Assembly (NCBI RefSeq): GCF_003334315.1
Contig: NZ_QOWR01000020.1
Strand: one strand, 5' to 3'
Source: Escherichia coli
GTDB lineage: Bacteria; Pseudomonadota; Gammaproteobacteria; Enterobacterales; Enterobacteriaceae
Length of the DNA: 64,000 nucleotides
The position numbers were made by a program, and so were the translations under genes. Below the pieces are notes generated by a model, which worked only from the letters and a program-made list of their open reading frames with translations, searched no databases and was not told the DNA's origin. This document shows, piece by piece, positions 1,057-61,224 of this stretch; the stretch's first letter is position 1; each line of letters begins with the position of its first letter.

Positions 1057-1139
1057 TAGGCCTGATAAGACGCTATCAGCGTCGCATCAGGCATCCTGCT
1101 CAAATGCCGGATGCGGCGTAAACGCCTTATCCTGCCTAC
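1057..1139. repeat. REP (repetitive extragenic palindrome) pair
   Basis: Inverted copies of the GCCGGATGCGGCGTAAACGCCTTATC / GTAGGCCTGATAAGACGC REP consensus in the yiiM-cpxA intergenic region. Confidence 0.75.
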
Positions 1140-1150
1140 AAATGCGGAGT

Positions 1151-2524
1151 TTAACTCCGCTTATACAGCGGCAACCAAATCACCAGCCGTAAACCGCCCA
1201 GCGGGCTGTCTTCTGCCTTCACCCAGCCACGATGCTGCTGAATGGCGGTTTCAACAATCGCCAGCCCCAATCCTGTACCGCCAGATTCACGATCGCGTGC
1301 TTCATCGGTCCGATAGAACGGACGGAAAATCTGTTCGCGATCTTCCGGGCTAACGCCAGGACCATCGTCGTCCACCGTAATGGTGATACCGTCTTTATCT
1401 ACCGCAAAGCCCACTTCAATCTTCGTATGGGAATAACGCAGAGCATTACGAACAATGTTTTCCAGCGCACTTTCCAGGGCGTTCGGATTGCCGTACAGCG
1501 GCCACGGCCCAGGCGGGAAGTTAACTGTCAACGACTTGCCCATTTGCTCGGCTTCGAACGCCGCGTTATCCAGCACTTCACTCCACAACTGATTGGCTTT
1601 GATGGTCTCGCTAACCAGCGCGTTTTTTTGCTGATTACGTGACATCACCAACAGGTCGTTGATCATGCTGTCCAGACGTTGCGCTTCGGTTTCAATACGC
1701 TCCAGTTCCTTGCTTTCACCGCTACGACGGCGCAGTAACGCCGTACCCAGTTGCAGACGCGTCAGCGGGGTGCGCAGCTCGTGAGAGATATCAGAAAGCA
1801 GACGCTGCTGGGAGGTCATCATGCGCTCCAGCGCGGTGACCATCTGGTTAAAACTGGCACCTGCGGCAAGGAATTCCTGTGGCCCCGCTTCCAGTTCCGG
1901 GTGCTGGCGTAAGTTTCCCTGGGCAACTTCATCGGCAGCGTTTTTCAGCTTACGCGCCGGTTTTGCCAGACTCCAGGCCAACCACAACAGCAGCGGCGTA
2001 CTGACCAACATGGTGACAATCAGCAGTAATAGCGGGCGGTCAAACAGTAAGTTAATGAAATCGGATTGAGAACTGCTGGCCGGACGAATCAGATAAAGTT
2101 GGTAATTATCTTCGCCATCACGCACGGAGAACGGACCGACCAGTTCCACGCGGCCATACTTTTTCTTCTGCGGATGATCGGCGTTATCGGCCTGACCAAT
2201 AAAGTTACGAATGATCTGCATTTCGCTGCGTTCAGCGCCGATCACGCGGCCTTCGGTGGTCACCAATAATAAACGCTGTCCTGGCGGTGCCCACTTATCA
2301 ATCGCCCGAAACAGACGCCGCCACCACATTAAATCGTTGGGCGGATCGTTCGCCAGCTCCGCTTCGACATGCTGCTCAATCATCAGCCCCTGACGCTGTT
2401 CGCTATCCAGAAGCTCGGTCATCTGGCGTGAATCGAGCTTGGGTAACATCAAAACCAACATCAACACCAGCGCCAGCGTCAGCCAGAAGATGGCGAAGAT
2501 GCGCGCGGTTAAGCTGCCTATCAT
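1151..2524 (-). CDS. cpxA: Envelope-stress sensor histidine kinase CpxA (457 aa)
   Basis: Full ORF; N-terminal membrane segments; H-box ISHELRTPLTRL; start overlaps cpxR stop (ATGA). Confidence 0.97.
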   Translation of the reverse strand: MIGSLTARIFAIFWLTLALVLMLVLMLPKLDSRQMTELLDSEQRQGLMIEQHVEAELANDPPNDLMWWRRLFRAIDKWAPPGQRLLLVTTEGRVIGAERSEMQIIRNFIGQADNADHPQKKKYGRVELVGPFSVRDGEDNYQLYLIRPASSSQSDFINLLFDRPLLLLIVTMLVSTPLLLWLAWSLAKPARKLKNAADEVAQGNLRQHPELEAGPQEFLAAGASFNQMVTALERMMTSQQRLLSDISHELRTPLTRLQLGTALLRRRSGESKELERIETEAQRLDSMINDLLVMSRNQQKNALVSETIKANQLWSEVLDNAAFEAEQMGKSLTVNFPPGPWPLYGNPNALESALENIVRNALRYSHTKIEVGFAVDKDGITITVDDDGPGVSPEDREQIFRPFYRTDEARDRESGGTGLGLAIVETAIQQHRGWVKAEDSPLGGLRLVIWLPLYKRS

Positions 2525-3219
2525 GAAGCAGAAACCATCAGATAGCCGCGACCACGCAAGGTTTTAAACCACGGGTGACCATCTTTACGATCCGGCAGTT
2601 TACGACGCAGGTTGGAAATGTGCATATCGATAGCGCGGTCGAAAGGCGTCAGGCGTTTGCCCAGCACTTCCTGGCTTAAATGTTCACGGGAAACCACCTG
2701 ACCCAGATGCTGTGCCAGCAAATAGAGCAGGGTAAACTCAGTGCCGGTTAACTCCAGCGTTTGCCCGTCGAAGCTGGCTTCCTGACGGCCTGGATTCAGC
2801 ACTAAGGCATCAACTTCCAGTGTCGGTGAACCGTTGTCGTTGTTTTGCTGTTGCTCGCTCCAGTGCGAACGGCGCAGGATCGCGCGAATACGTGCCACCA
2901 GCTCACGATCATTAAATGGTTTCGGGAGATAGTCATCTGCGCCCAGCTCAAGGCCGAGAACGCGATCAAGTTCACTGCCGCGCGCCGTCAACATAATGAC
3001 AGGCGTCTGGTGTGTCTGGCGAAGTGCTTTTAATGTGTCGATACCATTTTTCTTCGGCATCATTACGTCAAGCAAAAGTAAATCAATGCTGTCGTCCAGA
3101 AGATCAAGCGCCTGTTCCCCATCGTGGGCAACAATCACGTTGAAGCCTTCCATCTCGAGCAGCTCCTTTAATAGGGAAGTCAGCTCTCGGTCATCATCAA
3201 CTAACAGGATTTTATTCAT
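2521..3219 (-). CDS. cpxR: OmpR-family response regulator CpxR (232 aa)
   Basis: Receiver domain (MNKILLVDDD...LLLLDVMMP) plus winged-helix C-terminus; 4-bp overlap with cpxA. Confidence 0.97.
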   Translation of the reverse strand: MNKILLVDDDRELTSLLKELLEMEGFNVIVAHDGEQALDLLDDSIDLLLLDVMMPKKNGIDTLKALRQTHQTPVIMLTARGSELDRVLGLELGADDYLPKPFNDRELVARIRAILRRSHWSEQQQNNDNGSPTLEVDALVLNPGRQEASFDGQTLELTGTEFTLLYLLAQHLGQVVSREHLSQEVLGKRLTPFDRAIDMHISNLRRKLPDRKDGHPWFKTLRGRGYLMVSAS

Positions 3220-3274
3220 TGTTTAAATACCTCCGAGGCAGAAATTACGTCATCAGACGTCGCTAATCCATGAC

Positions 3275-3289
3275 TTTACGTTGTTTTAC
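3275..3289. promoter_or_regulatory. CpxR box (GTAAA-N5-GTAAA) in the divergent cpxRA/cpxP control region
   Basis: Plus strand TTTACGTTGTTTTAC is the reverse complement of GTAAAACAACGTAAA, a perfect direct-repeat CpxR consensus; a further GTAAA lies at 3320-3324. Confidence 0.6.
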
Positions 3290-3368
3290 ACCCCCTGACG
3301 CATGTTTGCAGCCTGAATCGTAAACTCTCTATCGTTGAATCGCGACAGAAAGATTTTGGGAGCAAATG

Positions 3369-3869
3369 ATGCGCATAGTTACCGCTGCCGTCATGGCCTC
3401 AACGCTGGCAGTCAGTTCATTAAGCCACGCTGCTGAAGTCGGTTCAGGCGATAACTGGCATCCGGGTGAAGAACTTACGCAGCGCAGTACGCAGAGCCAT
3501 ATGTTCGACGGCATAAGTTTAACCGAACATCAGCGTCAGCAGATGCGAGATCTTATGCAACAGGCCCGGCACGAACAGCCTCCTGTTAATGTTAGCGAAC
3601 TGGAGACAATGCATCGCCTTGTCACCGCAGAAAATTTTGATGAAAACGCTGTGCGCGCACAGGCAGAAAAAATGGCGAATGAGCAAATTGCTCGTCAGGT
3701 TGAGATGGCAAAAGTCCGCAACCAAATGTATCGCCTGTTAACGCCGGAGCAGCAAGCGGTTTTAAACGAGAAACATCAACAACGAATGGAGCAGTTGCGC
3801 GACGTGACGCAATGGCAAAAAAGTTCATCGTTGAAGCTATTGAGTAGTAGCAACTCACGTTCCCAGTAG
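3369..3869 (+). CDS. cpxP: Periplasmic Cpx pathway inhibitor/adaptor CpxP (166 aa)
   Basis: ORF-track 3366..3869 has tandem ATGs; second ATG gives [21 protein letters not shown] signal peptide; [12 protein letters not shown] helical motifs. Confidence 0.95.
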
Positions 3870-3877
3870 TAAACCCT

Positions 3878-3936
3878 GTTTTCCTTGCCATAGACACCAT
3901 CCCTGTCTTCCCCCACATGATGTGGGGGTTTTTTTT
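3878..3936 (+). ncRNA. cpxQ: CpxQ-like 3'-UTR-derived sRNA including the cpxP intrinsic terminator
   Basis: About 60 nt after the cpxP stop ending in hairpin CCCCCACAT/GATGTGGGGG (3910-3928) plus T8; the processed cpxP 3' end is the described CpxQ sRNA. Exact 5' end is not determinable from sequence. Confidence 0.5.
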
Positions 3937-4017
3937 ATCCTCAATTTGCCTGCTGCTTAATGCATTGCAGATGATTTGCTTCCGTTATACTAGCGTCAGT
4001 TGATAGCGGGAGTATTT

Positions 4018-4920
4018 ATGAATCAATCTTATGGACGGCTGGTCAGTCGGGCGGCGATTGCTGCGACGGCGATGGCTTCGCTGCTATTGCTGATTAAAAT
4101 TTTTGCATGGTGGTATACCGGGTCGGTGAGTATTCTCGCCGCGCTGGTGGATTCGCTGGTGGATATCGGCGCGTCGTTGACGAATTTATTGGTGGTGCGA
4201 TATTCCCTGCAACCTGCCGACGATAATCACTCGTTTGGTCACGGTAAAGCTGAGTCCCTCGCGGCGCTGGCGCAAAGTATGTTTATCTCCGGTTCGGCAC
4301 TATTCCTGTTTTTGACGGGTATTCAACATCTGATATCTCCAACACCGATGACAGATCCAGGCGTCGGGGTTATCGTGACAATTGTGGCGCTAATTTGTAC
4401 GATTATCCTTGTCTCGTTTCAGCGTTGGGTGGTGCGCCGGACGCAAAGCCAGGCGGTGCGGGCTGATATGCTACATTACCAGTCTGATGTTATGATGAAC
4501 GGCGCAATTCTGCTGGCGCTGGGGTTGTCCTGGTACGGCTGGCATCGCGCCGATGCTCTGTTTGCATTGGGAATCGGCATCTATATTTTATATAGCGCGT
4601 TACGCATGGGATATGAGGCGGTACAGTCATTACTGGATCGCGCATTACCTGATGAGGAACGGCAAGAAATTATTGATATCGTGACTTCCTGGCCGGGTGT
4701 TAGCGGCGCTCACGATCTTCGCACGCGGCAGTCAGGGCCGACCCGCTTTATTCAGATTCATTTGGAAATGGAAGACTCTCTGCCTTTGGTTCAGGCACAT
4801 ATGGTGGCGGATCAGGTAGAGCAGGCTATTTTACGGCGTTTTCCGGGATCGGATGTGATTATCCATCAGGACCCCTGTTCCGTCGTACCCAGGGAGGGTA
4901 AACGGTCTATGCTTTCATAA
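4018..4920 (+). CDS. fieF: Cation diffusion facilitator (Fe/Zn efflux) FieF/YiiP (300 aa)
   Basis: Start trimmed to ATG giving [15 protein letters not shown]; six TM segments then cytoplasmic domain. Confidence 0.95.
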
Positions 4921-5100
4921 TCAGTATAAAAGAGAGCCAGACCCGCATTTTGTGTATAAAATACCGCCATTTGGCCTGACCTGAATCAATTCAGCAGGAA
5001 GTGATTGTTATACTATTTGCACATTCGTTGGATCACTTCGATGTGCAAGAAGACTTCCGGCAACAGATTTCATTTTGCATTCCAAAGTTCAGAGGTAGTC

Positions 5101-6119: not shown

Positions 6120-6217
6120 GCCTGATGCGCTTCGCTTATCAGGCCTACGTGAATTCTGCAATTTATTGAATTTACAAATTTTTGTAGGCCGGATAAGGCG
6201 TTCGCGCCGCATCCGGC
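6120..6217. repeat. REP pair (BIME-like)
   Basis: GCCTGATGCGCTTCGCTTATCAGGCCTAC and GTAGGCCGGATAAGGCGTTCGCGCCGCATCCGGC in inverted arrangement downstream of pfkA. Confidence 0.75.
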
Positions 6218-53598: not shown

Positions 53599-54375
53599 AT
53601 GATGAATCCATTAATTATCAAACTGGGCGGCGTACTGCTGGATAGTGAAGAGGCGCTGGAACGTCTGTTTAGCGCACTGGTGAATTATCGTGAGTCACAT
53701 CAGCGTCCGCTGGTGATTGTGCACGGCGGCGGTTGCGTGGTGGATGAGCTGATGAAAGGGCTGAATCTGCCGGTGAAAAAGAAAAACGGCCTGCGGGTGA
53801 CGCCTGCTGATCAGATAGACATTATCACCGGAGCACTGGCGGGAACGGCAAATAAAACCCTGTTGGCATGGGCGAAGAAACATCAGATTGCGGCCGTAGG
53901 TTTGTTTCTCGGTGACGGCGACAGCGTCAAAGTGACCCAGCTTGATGAAGAGTTAGGTCATGTTGGACTGGCGCAGCCAGGTTCGCCTAAGCTTATCAAC
54001 TCCTTGCTGGAGAACGGTTATCTGCCGGTGGTCAGCTCCATTGGCGTAACAGACGAAGGGCAACTGATGAACGTCAATGCCGACCAGGCGGCAACGGCGC
54101 TGGCGGCAACGCTGGGCGCGGATCTGATTTTGCTCTCCGACGTCAGCGGCATTCTCGACGGCAAAGGGCAACGCATTGCCGAAATGACCGCCGCGAAAGC
54201 AGAACAACTGATTGAGCAGGGCATTATTACTGACGGCATGATAGTGAAAGTGAACGCGGCGCTGGATGCGGCCCGCACGCTGGGCCGTCCGGTAGATATC
54301 GCCTCCTGGCGTCATGCGGAGCAGCTTCCGGCACTGTTTAACGGTATGCCGATGGGTACGCGGATTTTAGCTTAA
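53599..54375 (+). CDS. argB: Acetylglutamate kinase (258 aa)
   Basis: Start trimmed to [23 protein letters not shown]; amino-acid kinase fold. Confidence 0.95.
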
Positions 54376-54435: not shown

Positions 54436-55809
54436 ATGGCACTTTGGGGCGGGCGTTTTACCCAGGCAGCAGATCAACGGTTCAAACAATTCAACGACTC
54501 ACTGCGCTTTGATTACCGTCTGGCGGAGCAGGATATTGTTGGCTCTGTGGCCTGGTCCAAAGCCCTGGTCACGGTAGGCGTGTTAACCGCAGAAGAGCAG
54601 GCGCAACTGGAAGAGGCGCTGAACGTGTTGCTGGAAGATGTTCGCGCCAGGCCACAACAAATCCTTGAAAGCGACGCCGAAGATATCCATAGCTGGGTGG
54701 AAGGCAAACTGATCGACAAAGTGGGCCAGTTAGGCAAAAAGCTGCATACCGGGCGTAGCCGTAATGATCAGGTAGCGACTGACCTGAAACTGTGGTGCAA
54801 AGATACCGTTAGCGAGTTACTGACGGCTAACCGGCAGCTGCAATCGGCGCTGGTGGAAACCGCACAAAACAATCAGGACGCGGTAATGCCAGGTTACACT
54901 CACCTGCAACGCGCCCAGCCGGTGACGTTCGCGCACTGGTGCCTGGCCTATGTTGAGATGCTGGCGCGTGATGAAAGCCGTTTGCAGGATGCGCTTAAGC
55001 GTCTGGATGTCAGCCCGCTAGGCTGTGGCGCGCTGGCGGGAACGGCCTATGAAATCGACCGTGAACAGTTAGCAGGCTGGCTGGGCTTTGCTTCGGCGAC
55101 CCGTAACAGTCTCGACAGCGTTTCTGACCGTGACCATGTGTTGGAACTGCTTTCTGCTGCCGCTATCGGCATGGTGCATCTGTCGCGTTTTGCTGAAGAT
55201 CTGATTTTCTTTAACACCGGCGAAGCGGGGTTTGTGGAGCTTTCTGACCGCGTGACTTCCGGTTCATCATTAATGCCGCAGAAGAAAAACCCGGATGCGC
55301 TGGAGCTGATTCGCGGTAAATGCGGCCGGGTGCAGGGGGCGTTAACCGGCATGATGATGACGCTGAAAGGTTTGCCGCTGGCTTACAACAAAGATATGCA
55401 GGAAGACAAAGAAGGTCTGTTCGACGCGCTCGATACCTGGCTGGACTGCCTGCATATGGCGGCGCTGGTGCTGGACGGCATTCAGGTGAAACGTCCACGT
55501 TGCCAGGAAGCGGCTCAGCAGGGTTACGCCAACGCCACCGAACTGGCGGATTATCTGGTGGCGAAAGGCGTACCGTTCCGCGAGGCGCACCATATTGTTG
55601 GTGAAGCGGTGGTGGAAGCCATTCGTCAGGGCAAACCGCTGGAAGATCTGCCGCTCAGTGAGTTGCAGAAATTCAGTCAGGTGATTGACGAAGATGTCTA
55701 TCCGATTCTGTCGCTGCAATCGTGCCTCGACAAGCGTGCGGCAAAAGGCGGCGTCTCACCGCAGCAGGTGGCGCAGGCGATTGCTTTTGCGCAGGCTCGG
55801 TTAGGGTAA
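54436..55809 (+). CDS. argH: Argininosuccinate lyase (457 aa)
   Basis: [23 protein letters not shown]; fumarase/aspartase signature [12 protein letters not shown]. Confidence 0.97.
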
Positions 55810-55832
55810 GAACATTTATATGTATAAATTTG

Positions 55833-55859
55833 AGCCTGGCTTATCGCCGGGCTTTTTTA
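55833..55859 (+). terminator. Intrinsic terminator downstream of argH
   Basis: AGCCTGGC-TTATC-GCCGGGCT (one G-U wobble) followed by TTTTTT. Confidence 0.55.
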
Positions 55860-55863
55860 TGGC

Positions 55864-55980
55864 AAAAAAAAGCGGATCCTGGAGATCCGCAAAAGTTCAC
55901 GTTGGCTTTAGTTATTCGAGTTGAGAAACTCTCGAAACGGGCAGTGACTTCAAGGGTTAAAAGAGGTGCCGCTCCGTTTC
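55864..55980 (-). ncRNA. oxyS: Oxidative-stress small RNA OxyS (~109 nt)
   Basis: Minus strand reads GAAACGGAGCGGCACCTCTTTTAACCCTTGAAGTCACTGCCCGTTTCGAGAGTTTCTCAACTCGAATAACTAAAGCCAACGTGAACTTTTGCGGATCTCCAGGATCCGCTTTTTTTT, matching OxyS as I recall it, including its terminator hairpin; divergent from oxyR. Confidence 0.88.
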
Positions 55981-56075
55981 TGTGAGCAATTATCAGTCAG
56001 AATGCTTGATAGGGATAATCGTTCATTGCTATTCTACCTATCGCCATGAACTATCGTGGCGATGGAGGATGGATA
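55981..56075. promoter_or_regulatory. oxyS / oxyR divergent promoter region with OxyR binding site
   Basis: 95-bp spacer between the OxyS 5' end and the oxyR ATG; the site is inferred from the known autoregulatory architecture and not delimited. Confidence 0.5.
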
Positions 56076-56993
56076 ATGAATATTCGTGATCTTGAGTACC
56101 TGGTGGCATTGGCTGAACACCGCCATTTTCGGCGTGCGGCAGATTCCTGCCACGTTAGCCAGCCGACGCTTAGCGGGCAAATTCGTAAGCTGGAAGATGA
56201 GCTGGGCGTGATGTTGCTGGAGCGGACCAGCCGTAAAGTGTTGTTCACCCAGGCGGGAATGCTGCTGGTGGATCAGGCGCGTACCGTGCTGCGTGAGGTG
56301 AAAGTCCTTAAAGAGATGGCAAGCCAGCAGGGCGAGACGATGTCCGGACCGCTGCACATTGGTTTGATTCCCACAGTTGGACCGTACCTGCTACCGCATA
56401 TTATCCCTATGCTGCACCAGACCTTTCCAAAGCTGGAAATGTATCTGCATGAAGCACAGACCCACCAGTTACTGGCGCAACTGGACAGCGGCAAACTCGA
56501 TTGCGTGATCCTCGCGCTGGTGAAAGAGAGCGAAGCATTCATTGAAGTGCCGTTGTTTGATGAGCCAATGTTGCTGGCTATCTATGAAGATCACCCGTGG
56601 GCGAACCGCGAATGCGTACCGATGGCCGATCTGGCAGGGGAAAAACTGCTGATGCTGGAAGATGGTCACTGTTTGCGCGATCAGGCAATGGGTTTCTGTT
56701 TTGAAGCCGGGGCGGATGAAGATACACACTTCCGCGCGACCAGCCTGGAAACTCTGCGCAACATGGTGGCGGCAGGTAGCGGGATCACTTTACTGCCAGC
56801 GCTGGCTGTGCCGCCGGAGCGCAAACGCGATGGGGTTGTTTATCTGCCGTGCATTAAGCCGGAACCACGCCGCACTATTGGCCTGGTTTATCGTCCTGGC
56901 TCACCGCTGCGCAGCCGCTATGAGCAGCTGGCAGAGGCCATCCGCGCAAGAATGGATGGCCATTTCGATAAAGTTTTAAAACAGGCGGTTTAA
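56076..56993 (+). CDS. oxyR: LysR-family peroxide-sensing regulator OxyR (305 aa)
   Basis: Start trimmed to [40 protein letters not shown] (LysR HTH); redox Cys in GHCLRD. Confidence 0.96.
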
Positions 56994-58376
56994 ACCGTTT
57001 AACGCAGCTACCCGATAGGCTTCCGCCATCGTCGGGTAGTTAAAGGTGGTGTTGACGAAGTACTCAATAGTGTTGCCGCCACCTTTCTGTTCCATAATCG
57101 CCTGACCGATATGAATAATTTCGGCAGCGCGCTCGCCAAAGCAGTGAATACCCAGAATCTCTTTTGTTTCCCGATGGAACAAAATTTTCAGCGTGCCCAC
57201 GTTCATGCCGACGATTTGTGCGCGTGCCAGATGTTTAAACTGGGCGCGGCCCACTTCATATGGCACTTTCATTGCGGTCAGCTGCTGTTCGGTTTTGCCC
57301 ACAGAGCTGATTTCCGGGATGGTGTAAATACCGGTAGGGATATCTTCAATCAGATGTGCGGTGGCTTCGCCTTTTACCAGCGCCTGCGCGGCAATGCGCC
57401 CCTGGTCATAGGCCGCCGACGCCAGGCTCGGATAACCAATCACGTCGCCCACCGCGTAAACGTGTGGCTGTGCGGTCTGATACATGCTGTTGACCTTCAG
57501 CTGTCCGCGGCTGTCAGTTTCTAGCCCAATGTTCTGTAACGCCAGCGAATCGGTATTACCGGTGCGACCGTTGGCATAGAGCAGGCAGTCAGCTTTCAGT
57601 TTTTTACCCGACTTCAGATGCATGATCACACCATCGTCACAGCCTTCGATCTTCTCGTACTCTTCGTTGTGACGAATCACTACGCCACTGTTCCAGAAGT
57701 GATAGGAGAGAGAATCTGACATCTCTTGATCGAGAAATGCCAGCAGGCGATCGCGGGTGTTGATCAGATCCACTTTTACATCCATACCGCGGAAGATCGA
57801 CGCATATTCACAGCCGATCACTCCAGCACCATAGATAAGTACATGGCGCGGTTCGTGGTGCATGCTGAGAATTGAGTCGCTGTCGTAAATGCGTGGATGG
57901 GTGAAATCAACATCTGTTGGATGATATGGACGAGAGCCGCAGGCAATAACAAATTTTTCAGCGGTTAGTGTTTCAACGCTGCCGTCCGGGCAATCCAGCG
58001 CCAACGTATGCTCGTCAACAAAGCGAGCGTTTCCCTGCAATATTTCACAGTGATTACGTTCGTAAAATCCCTGACGCATGCGCGTTTGTTGATTAATCAC
58101 GTTATCGGCATGGTTAAGGATATCGGCAAAAGAAGAGCGGAGCAGTCGGGAATGGTCGCTGTAAAGTGGGTTTTGATTGAATTCTATAATGCGGCTGACG
58201 GCGTGACGGAGAGCTTTCGACGGGATGGTGCCCCAGTGGGTGCAACCGCCGCCAACATTTTGATAACGCTCGATAACTGCGACGCGCGCACCTTGCTTAA
58301 CCAGGCCCATTGCAGCGCCTTCGCCGCCGGGGCCGGAACCTATTACTATGGCATCGTAATCGTAGGAATGTGGCAT
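56976..58376 (-). CDS. sthA: Soluble pyridine nucleotide transhydrogenase (466 aa)
   Basis: FAD-binding GSGPGG near the N-terminus; disulfide-oxidoreductase fold; 3' end overlaps the oxyR 3' end by 18 bp. Confidence 0.96.
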
Positions 58377-60856: not shown

Positions 60857-60984
60857 GATGTATCCTGAAAAATTAAAGTACGCGGCGATTGTAGGGATTG
60901 CTCATCAGATGTCCAGATCTTGATGAATTCCTATTTGTGAGCTACGTCTGGACAGTAACTTGTTACAACCTGTAGCATCCACTT

Positions 60985-61224
60985 GCCGGTCCTGTGAGTT
61001 AATAGGGAATCCAGTGCGAATCTGGAGCTGACGCGCAGCGGTAAGGAAAGGTGCGATGATTGCGTTATGCGGACACTGCCATTCGGTGGGAAGTCATCAT
61101 CTCTTAGTATCTTAGATACCCCTCCAAGCCCGAAGACCTGCCGGCCAACGTCGCATCTGGTTCTCATCATCGCGTAATATTGATGAAACCTGCGGCATCC
61201 TTCTTCTATTGTGGATGCTTTACA
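60985..61224 (+). promoter_or_regulatory. btuB 5' leader carrying the adenosylcobalamin riboswitch
   Basis: Leader GCCGGTCCTGTGAGTTAATAGGGAATCCAGTGCGAATCTGGAGCTGACGCGCAGCGGTAAGGAAAGGTGCG... with B12-box-like AAGCCCGAAGACCTGCCGGCC at ~61124-61146; ends at the btuB ATG. Confidence 0.85.

Follow-up and report, generated by a model that had tools for sequence, protein, structure and literature searches.

OxyS was first described in 1997, and the binding of OxyR to a site shared by the divergent genes oxyS and oxyR is established knowledge. For the mature RNA, a length of 109-110 nt has been reported (PMC10578473). With fhlA, OxyS forms a kissing complex at two sites, one in the fhlA coding sequence and one at the ribosome-binding site (PMC10578473; PMC5793797), and another paper describes Hfq-dependent repression of the translation of both fhlA and rpoS (PMC4344510). 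With the leader of nusG, it pairs through hairpin B and the linker, including linker bases C76 and C77; this pairing is interrupted, has been demonstrated with compensatory mutants, and represses nusG; kilR is thereby de-repressed and cell division is arrested transiently, which accounts for the antimutator phenotype (PMC5793797). A 2024 paper furthermore ties OxyS to IscR and aminoglycoside resistance (PMC11572966).

Identity, ends and fold of the RNA gene

We compared these descriptions with a 64,000-nucleotide stretch of Escherichia coli DNA, hereafter the window, whose minus strand at 55864-55980 had been proposed in a preliminary description to encode an OxyS RNA. This proposal is borne out by a full-length Rfam match and by exact agreement with the K-12 oxyS sequence. 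Specifically, the Rfam covariance model for OxyS (RF00035), which had been named beforehand as the check to be made, matches 55871-55980 on the minus strand with E = 4.6e-29 and 139.5 bits, almost double the gathering threshold of 75. The match spans model positions 1-110 of 110, is not truncated, and is the top Rfam match in the 64-kb window. In addition, K-12 MG1655 4156500-4160000 (3,501 bases) is an exact substring of the window, beginning at 54086, and window positions 55864-55980 correspond with 100% identity to K-12 4158278-4158394, annotated there as the ncRNA oxyS (b4458) between argH and oxyR. When the stretch between the argH terminator and the oxyR ATG is aligned with K-12, 269 of 269 positions carry the same base. 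Taken together, we regard it as virtually certain that the locus represents the reference copy of the oxyS gene on the Escherichia coli chromosome, in a window that agrees with K-12 MG1655 at every base of the 3.5 kb compared. The gene is therefore already known: base for base it is the K-12 reference copy, and as such it is ordinary.

The 5′ end of oxyS is the G at 55980, while its 3′ end lies inside the U-run at 55871-55864. Read along the minus strand, the interval 55864-55980 begins with GAAACGGAGCGG and ends with GCGGATCTCCAGGATCCGC followed by exactly eight T (55871-55864); in RNA letters, positions 55980 to 55864 read GAAACGGAGCGGCACCUCUUUUAACCCUUGAAGUCACUGCCCGUUUCGAGAGUUUCUCAACUCGAAUAACUAAAGCCAACGUGAACUUUUGCGGAUCUCCAGGAUCCGC and then eight U. 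The interval of 117 nt takes in the whole of this U-run, compared with the 109-110 nt published for the RNA itself.

Minimum free energy (MFE) folding of the RNA yields three hairpins at -32.9 kcal/mol (z = -2.84), a stability reached by 1 of 200 shuffled sequences, and the resulting structure agrees with the Rfam consensus. Stem-loop 1 (hairpin A) covers nt 1-47 (55934-55980, minus strand) and is found both in the MFE fold and in the Rfam structure line. Stem-loop 2 (hairpin B; GAGUU-UCUC-AACUC, nt 50-63, 55918-55931, minus strand) appears only in the MFE fold and the Rfam consensus and is missing from the centroid structure. Hairpins 2 and 3 are connected by an A/U-rich linker that was read directly from the sequence, GAAUAACUAAAGCCAACGUGAACUUUU (nt 64-90, 55891-55917, minus strand). 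Since this sequence is identical to the one that has been studied, the linker contains both of the Hfq-binding motifs described for OxyS, namely, the A-rich A65-A74 and the U-rich U87-U90 (PMC10578473). Stem-loop 3 (hairpin C) is the Rho-independent terminator GCGGAUCUCCAGGAUCCGC (nt 91-109, 55872-55890, minus strand), supported by the terminator scan as well as by the fold. A fourth stem-loop at nt 72-89 has been described by NMR (PMC10578473); it is absent from the folds computed here.

The terminal hairpin GCGGATCTCCAGGATCCGC plus U8 that had been quoted for this RNA is present at 55890-55872, and the T-run that follows at 55871-55864 provides the U8 tail on the minus strand, as read from the sequence and from the terminator scan. 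The scan independently recovers an 8-pair stem at 55890-55872 together with its T-run, and a T-run of at least 7 is kept in 34 of 34 orthologues. On the far side of this tail, 9 bp from the OxyS U-run, the scan places the argH terminator with a T-run of its own (55832-55854). Because neither of the two hairpins has a T-run on its opposite strand, they represent two separate one-way terminators. This arrangement bears on the reading that there is no independent RNA gene here at all and that conservation of the locus stems only from the regulatory region of oxyR together with a terminator for convergent transcription from argH. The palindromic stem of the OxyS hairpin and its position 9 bp from the argH terminator would suit that reading, which we nevertheless consider extremely improbable: argH is already served by its own terminator at 55832-55854, and the plus strand beyond the OxyS hairpin reads AAAAGTT instead of a T-run. 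We thus continue to treat the hairpin as the 3′ end of oxyS and return to the conservation argument below.

Divergent oxyR, the upstream region and overlapping reading frames

The gene on the other side of oxyS is oxyR (56076-56993, plus strand), encoding the LysR-family peroxide sensor that activates oxyS. Its product matches the NCBIfam equivalog NF008361 ("DNA-binding transcriptional regulator OxyR") with 632.9 bits against a cutoff of 329, over residues 1-305 of 305. The start is the in-frame ATG that opens MNIRDLEYL, located inside a longer mechanical ORF, and oxyR is annotated as such in the K-12 record and in one PGAP E. coli record. With this ATG at 56076, the gap to the first base of the RNA at 55980 comprises 55981-56075, i.e., the 95 nt that had been claimed. 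The back-to-back arrangement of oxyS and oxyR around a shared OxyR site likewise holds, given the divergent oxyR and an OxyR-type motif in the gap. The wider neighbourhood includes argH (54436-55809) and sthA (56976-58376, minus strand), both of which pass their curated NCBIfam equivalog cutoffs.

The OxyR-type motif, ATAG-N7-CGAT-N7-ATAG-N7-CGAT, is a predicted binding site at 56018-56054, corresponding to -38 to -74 from the oxyS 5′ end. This four-element pattern occurs once in the 64 kb and in 0 of 100 shuffles, and its four tetranucleotides are invariant in 34 orthologues. Compared with the full published OxyR consensus, the site differs at 4 of 20 specified positions, and a search of the window for that consensus, ATAGnTnnnAnCTAT-N7-ATAGnTnnnAnCTAT, with up to three mismatches gave no match. 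Between the site and the RNA lies a putative -10 hexamer on the minus strand, GATAAT (55989-55994, -14 to -9 from the 5′ end), whose ATAAT is invariant in the 34 orthologues and which is likely the -10 element of oxyS. At the -35 position, TATCCC (56012-56017) shares only 2 of 6 bases with the consensus, and a sigma-70 consensus scan returned no complete promoter on the oxyS strand. We infer that the weak -35 and the lack of a full sigma-70 match fit an activator-dependent oxyS promoter and not the absence of a promoter. On the plus strand, the promoter scan found an oxyR promoter-like site by consensus match only (TTGATA, 18 nt, TG-TATTCT; 56006-56035). The -10 of this candidate falls inside the OxyR-type site at 56018-56054, a position that would be consistent with the known autorepression of oxyR.

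The expectation that no ORF would be predicted at the locus holds on the strand that encodes the RNA and in the annotation of K-12 but not on the opposite strand, where two mechanical ORFs overlap oxyS: one of 87 aa with a GTG start (55722-55985, plus strand) and one of 34 aa (55820-55924, plus strand). The K-12 record and the two PGAP records that were examined annotate neither of them. The 87-aa ORF is antisense to oxyS over its full length and also traverses both terminators, that of argH and that of oxyS. Such frames could suggest that the locus encodes a small protein, either from a frame within a dual-function small RNA or from the opposite-strand 87-aa GTG ORF, and OxyS nt 28-69 do hold a UUG-initiated frame of 13 codons. 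However, there is no AUG anywhere in OxyS and no Shine-Dalgarno sequence was seen before the UUG frame, the 87-aa ORF has its start codon within argH, in a different frame, and crosses both terminators, and orthologues carry indels that are not multiples of three throughout the region. With no CDS annotated at the locus in the three records either, a protein-coding function has next to no chance of being correct in our view, and the 87-aa ORF is most likely spurious. Both coding readings, a small protein in the RNA and the opposite-strand ORF, were accordingly rejected for want of an AUG, for frame-breaking indels and for lack of an annotated CDS, leaving the non-coding oxyS gene as the reading we adopt.

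That an ORF-only pass would miss this gene, as the preliminary description had anticipated, is illustrated by two PGAP E. coli records without any feature at the position. Among the three records opened, oxyS is annotated only in the curated K-12 MG1655 record and omitted from the two PGAP RefSeq records; likewise, all eight rows among the matches listed from complete E. coli genomes carry no oxyS annotation ("none"). The oxyS call therefore amounts to a non-coding gene recognised from sequence where an ORF-only pass is blind, its ends, spacing and context all being correct, and it indicates that sequence-reading passes can recover real RNA genes left unannotated by standard pipelines.

Several other RNA elements were found in the window. 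A cobalamin riboswitch (RF00174, 87 bits) lies at 60970-61159 on the plus strand, upstream of btuB by comparison with an annotated O103:H2 locus. Further matches, all at the Rfam gathering score, comprise naRNA4 (1059-1136, minus strand, 78.6 bits), two copies of ES036 (6141-6182, minus strand, and 25572-25613, plus strand; 46.2 and 39.6 bits), a ClpQY promoter element (19871-19928, minus strand, 63.6 bits) and an L31 ribosomal-protein leader (24540-24592, plus strand, 60.1 bits).

Conservation across Enterobacteriaceae and within E. coli

Orthologous loci were retrieved with a 22-mer of the linker, which has exact matches in 34 species-representative genomes from about ten genera: Escherichia, Citrobacter, Salmonella, Klebsiella, Raoultella, Trabulsiella, Pseudocitrobacter, Franconibacter and one further member of the Enterobacteriaceae. 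Because the loci were retrieved with this 22-mer, the invariance of the linker in the alignments is a matter of construction. In the alignment of 33 full-length loci and the window, the oxyR ATG and the complement of its Shine-Dalgarno sequence are invariant and the 5′ hairpins of OxyS vary.

For covariation, we used a set of 28 enterobacterial sequences with a 5′ domain of the E. coli type. In their consensus fold, hairpins 1 and 3 are retained and hairpin 2 is lost, the region of the latter being variable in length between genera and deleted in some Citrobacter; the indels break the MAFFT alignment there, so that hairpin 2 was left unscored and the covariation support covers hairpins 1 and 3. 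Within these, double-sided changes are seen in 8 of 15 pairs, and 93.8% of cells are paired. Shifting the partners by 1-3 columns lowers this share to 33-49%, and the observed covariation score was reached in 0 of 500 shuffles. Most of the signal comes from hairpin 1, with compensatory changes in 7 of 9 outer-stem pairs, and hairpin 3 contributes one compensatory pair (C-G to U-A). These results also bear on the reading without an independent RNA gene. It is true that the multi-genus alignment is best conserved at the OxyR site and promoter and not in the 5′ half of the RNA, as conservation of the regulatory region alone would have it. Yet the compensatory changes in hairpin 1 make sense only for an RNA transcribed from the minus strand, the covariance model scores 139.5 bits, K-12 annotates an RNA at this place, and the OxyS RNA has been studied directly (PMC10578473; PMC5793797). 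The oxyS gene proper thus remains the reading by which we interpret the locus.

When 12 orthologous loci were searched at the Rfam gathering threshold, OxyS was found in Salmonella, Citrobacter koseri, Pseudocitrobacter and Trabulsiella, while the loci of the Klebsiella oxytoca group, Raoultella and Franconibacter among these 12 stayed below the gathering score. At the syntenic position, the Klebsiella oxytoca group and Raoultella (6 loci) and Franconibacter (2 loci) do have an OxyS-like RNA that shares the OxyR site, the -10, the linker and the terminator and has a different or much diverged 5′ domain lacking the AACCCUUG loop. This hairpin-1 loop site is kept across Escherichia, Citrobacter, Salmonella, Trabulsiella and Pseudocitrobacter. 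The terminator loop UCCAGGA, for its part, is confined to Escherichia within the alignment, with one base fewer in E. albertii, and the terminator loops of the other genera are shorter and different.

Within the species, the 117-nt oxyS is present in all 5,426 of 5,426 complete E. coli genomes, at an identity of at least 99% in 4,879 of them. Two of the 5,427 oxyS matches are on records classed as plasmids. In NZ_CP173567.1 (1602978-1603074), only OxyS nt 21-117 were matched; the first 20 nt would seem to be missing or disrupted in this genome, and possibly the promoter too.

The junction between argH and oxyS was found to be variable. When a 701-nt query across argH-oxyS-oxyR was required to be covered to 80% in complete E. 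coli genomes, 1,872 of 5,426 fell below this coverage, i.e., lacked an intact junction of the window type (55810-55864). About a third of E. coli genomes thus do not match the junction of the window, and in the rows listed they differ from the first base past the oxyS 3′ end: among the matches listed (four rows), the breaks fall at query base 265 or 272, no more than 7 bases from the last base of the U-run of OxyS. Between argH and oxyS, the O103:H2 strain FWSEC0007 carries a ~3.1-kb segment (locus positions 1899-5000) that contains manD and an MFS transporter gene. It has its own hairpin just after argH as well as a REP-like element, and the MFS transporter gene points into oxyS, with no obvious terminator seen between the two. 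Matching or near-matching junction sequence after the U-run occurs in Escherichia sp. E1V33 and E. whittamii, and Citrobacter, Salmonella and Klebsiella have the K-12-type junction. Because these other genera carry the K-12-type junction, the manD/MFS segment looks like an insertion within Escherichia. It is speculative, and we would put it down as a very improbable idea, that in the strains bearing the segment, as opposed to the one analysed here, convergent read-through might yield antisense RNA covering both oxyS and the oxyR promoter and thereby alter the peroxide response.

Target pairing and relation to known systems

The loops of the RNA encoded in the window contain complementarity to fhlA at two places. 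The hairpin 1 loop AACCCUUG (OxyS nt 23-30, 55951-55958) is complementary to fhlA +34 to +41, and the hairpin 3 loop UCCAGGA (nt 98-104, 55877-55883) to fhlA -15 to -9, beside the Shine-Dalgarno sequence. Judged by length alone, this complementarity is not significant, a 7-mer being found somewhere in 323 of 500 shuffles; the joint occurrence of an 8-mer in the hairpin 1 loop and a 7-mer in the hairpin 3 loop was obtained in 3 of 2,000 shuffles. Both sites coincide with the published sites of the kissing complex. For the nusG leader, a simple duplex test gave a best energy of -27.2 kcal/mol, a value that is not above chance, as 31 of 300 shuffled leaders did equally well or better, and no Watson-Crick run of at least 6 was found between the linker and the nusG leader.

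Peroxide induction has been published for the same sequence (PMC10578473; PMC5793797), as has a discrete induced transcript of about 110 nt, and both the induction and the Hfq binding of the OxyS in the window would be expected from the literature on the identical RNA. According to this picture, hydrogen peroxide would oxidise OxyR already bound at the shared site, and oxidised OxyR would activate oxyS transcription from that site, which would also overlap the oxyR promoter. The resulting OxyS of 109-110 nt is predicted to bind Hfq via its A/U-rich linker and U tail and to act through base pairing. By pairing with the nusG leader through hairpin B and the linker, OxyS would lower NusG and allow read-through into kilR, and this read-through would cause a transient arrest of cell division favouring DNA repair, that is, the antimutator effect. 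OxyS would also lower rpoS translation and, according to the 2024 paper, may be implicated in the control of iscR.

Compared with the known OxyS (RF00035; K-12 oxyS b4458), the RNA and both of its flanks are 100% identical and its coordinates are the same as those of the annotation. The likeness extends to the three-hairpin fold with an intrinsic terminator, the divergent oxyR with its OxyR site, and the fhlA-complementary loops, and no difference from K-12 oxyS emerged in any feature tested. A similar logic is known from SgrS, which lies next to sgrR: in both systems, a stress-sensing transcription factor activates an adjacent, divergent, Hfq-dependent small RNA that acts in trans, and this RNA represses mRNAs with Hfq by pairing at or near their ribosome-binding sites. 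RNAs of the SgrS type, however, belong to other families with other sequences and other signals, and OxyS is unusual for its two-site kissing-loop interaction with fhlA.
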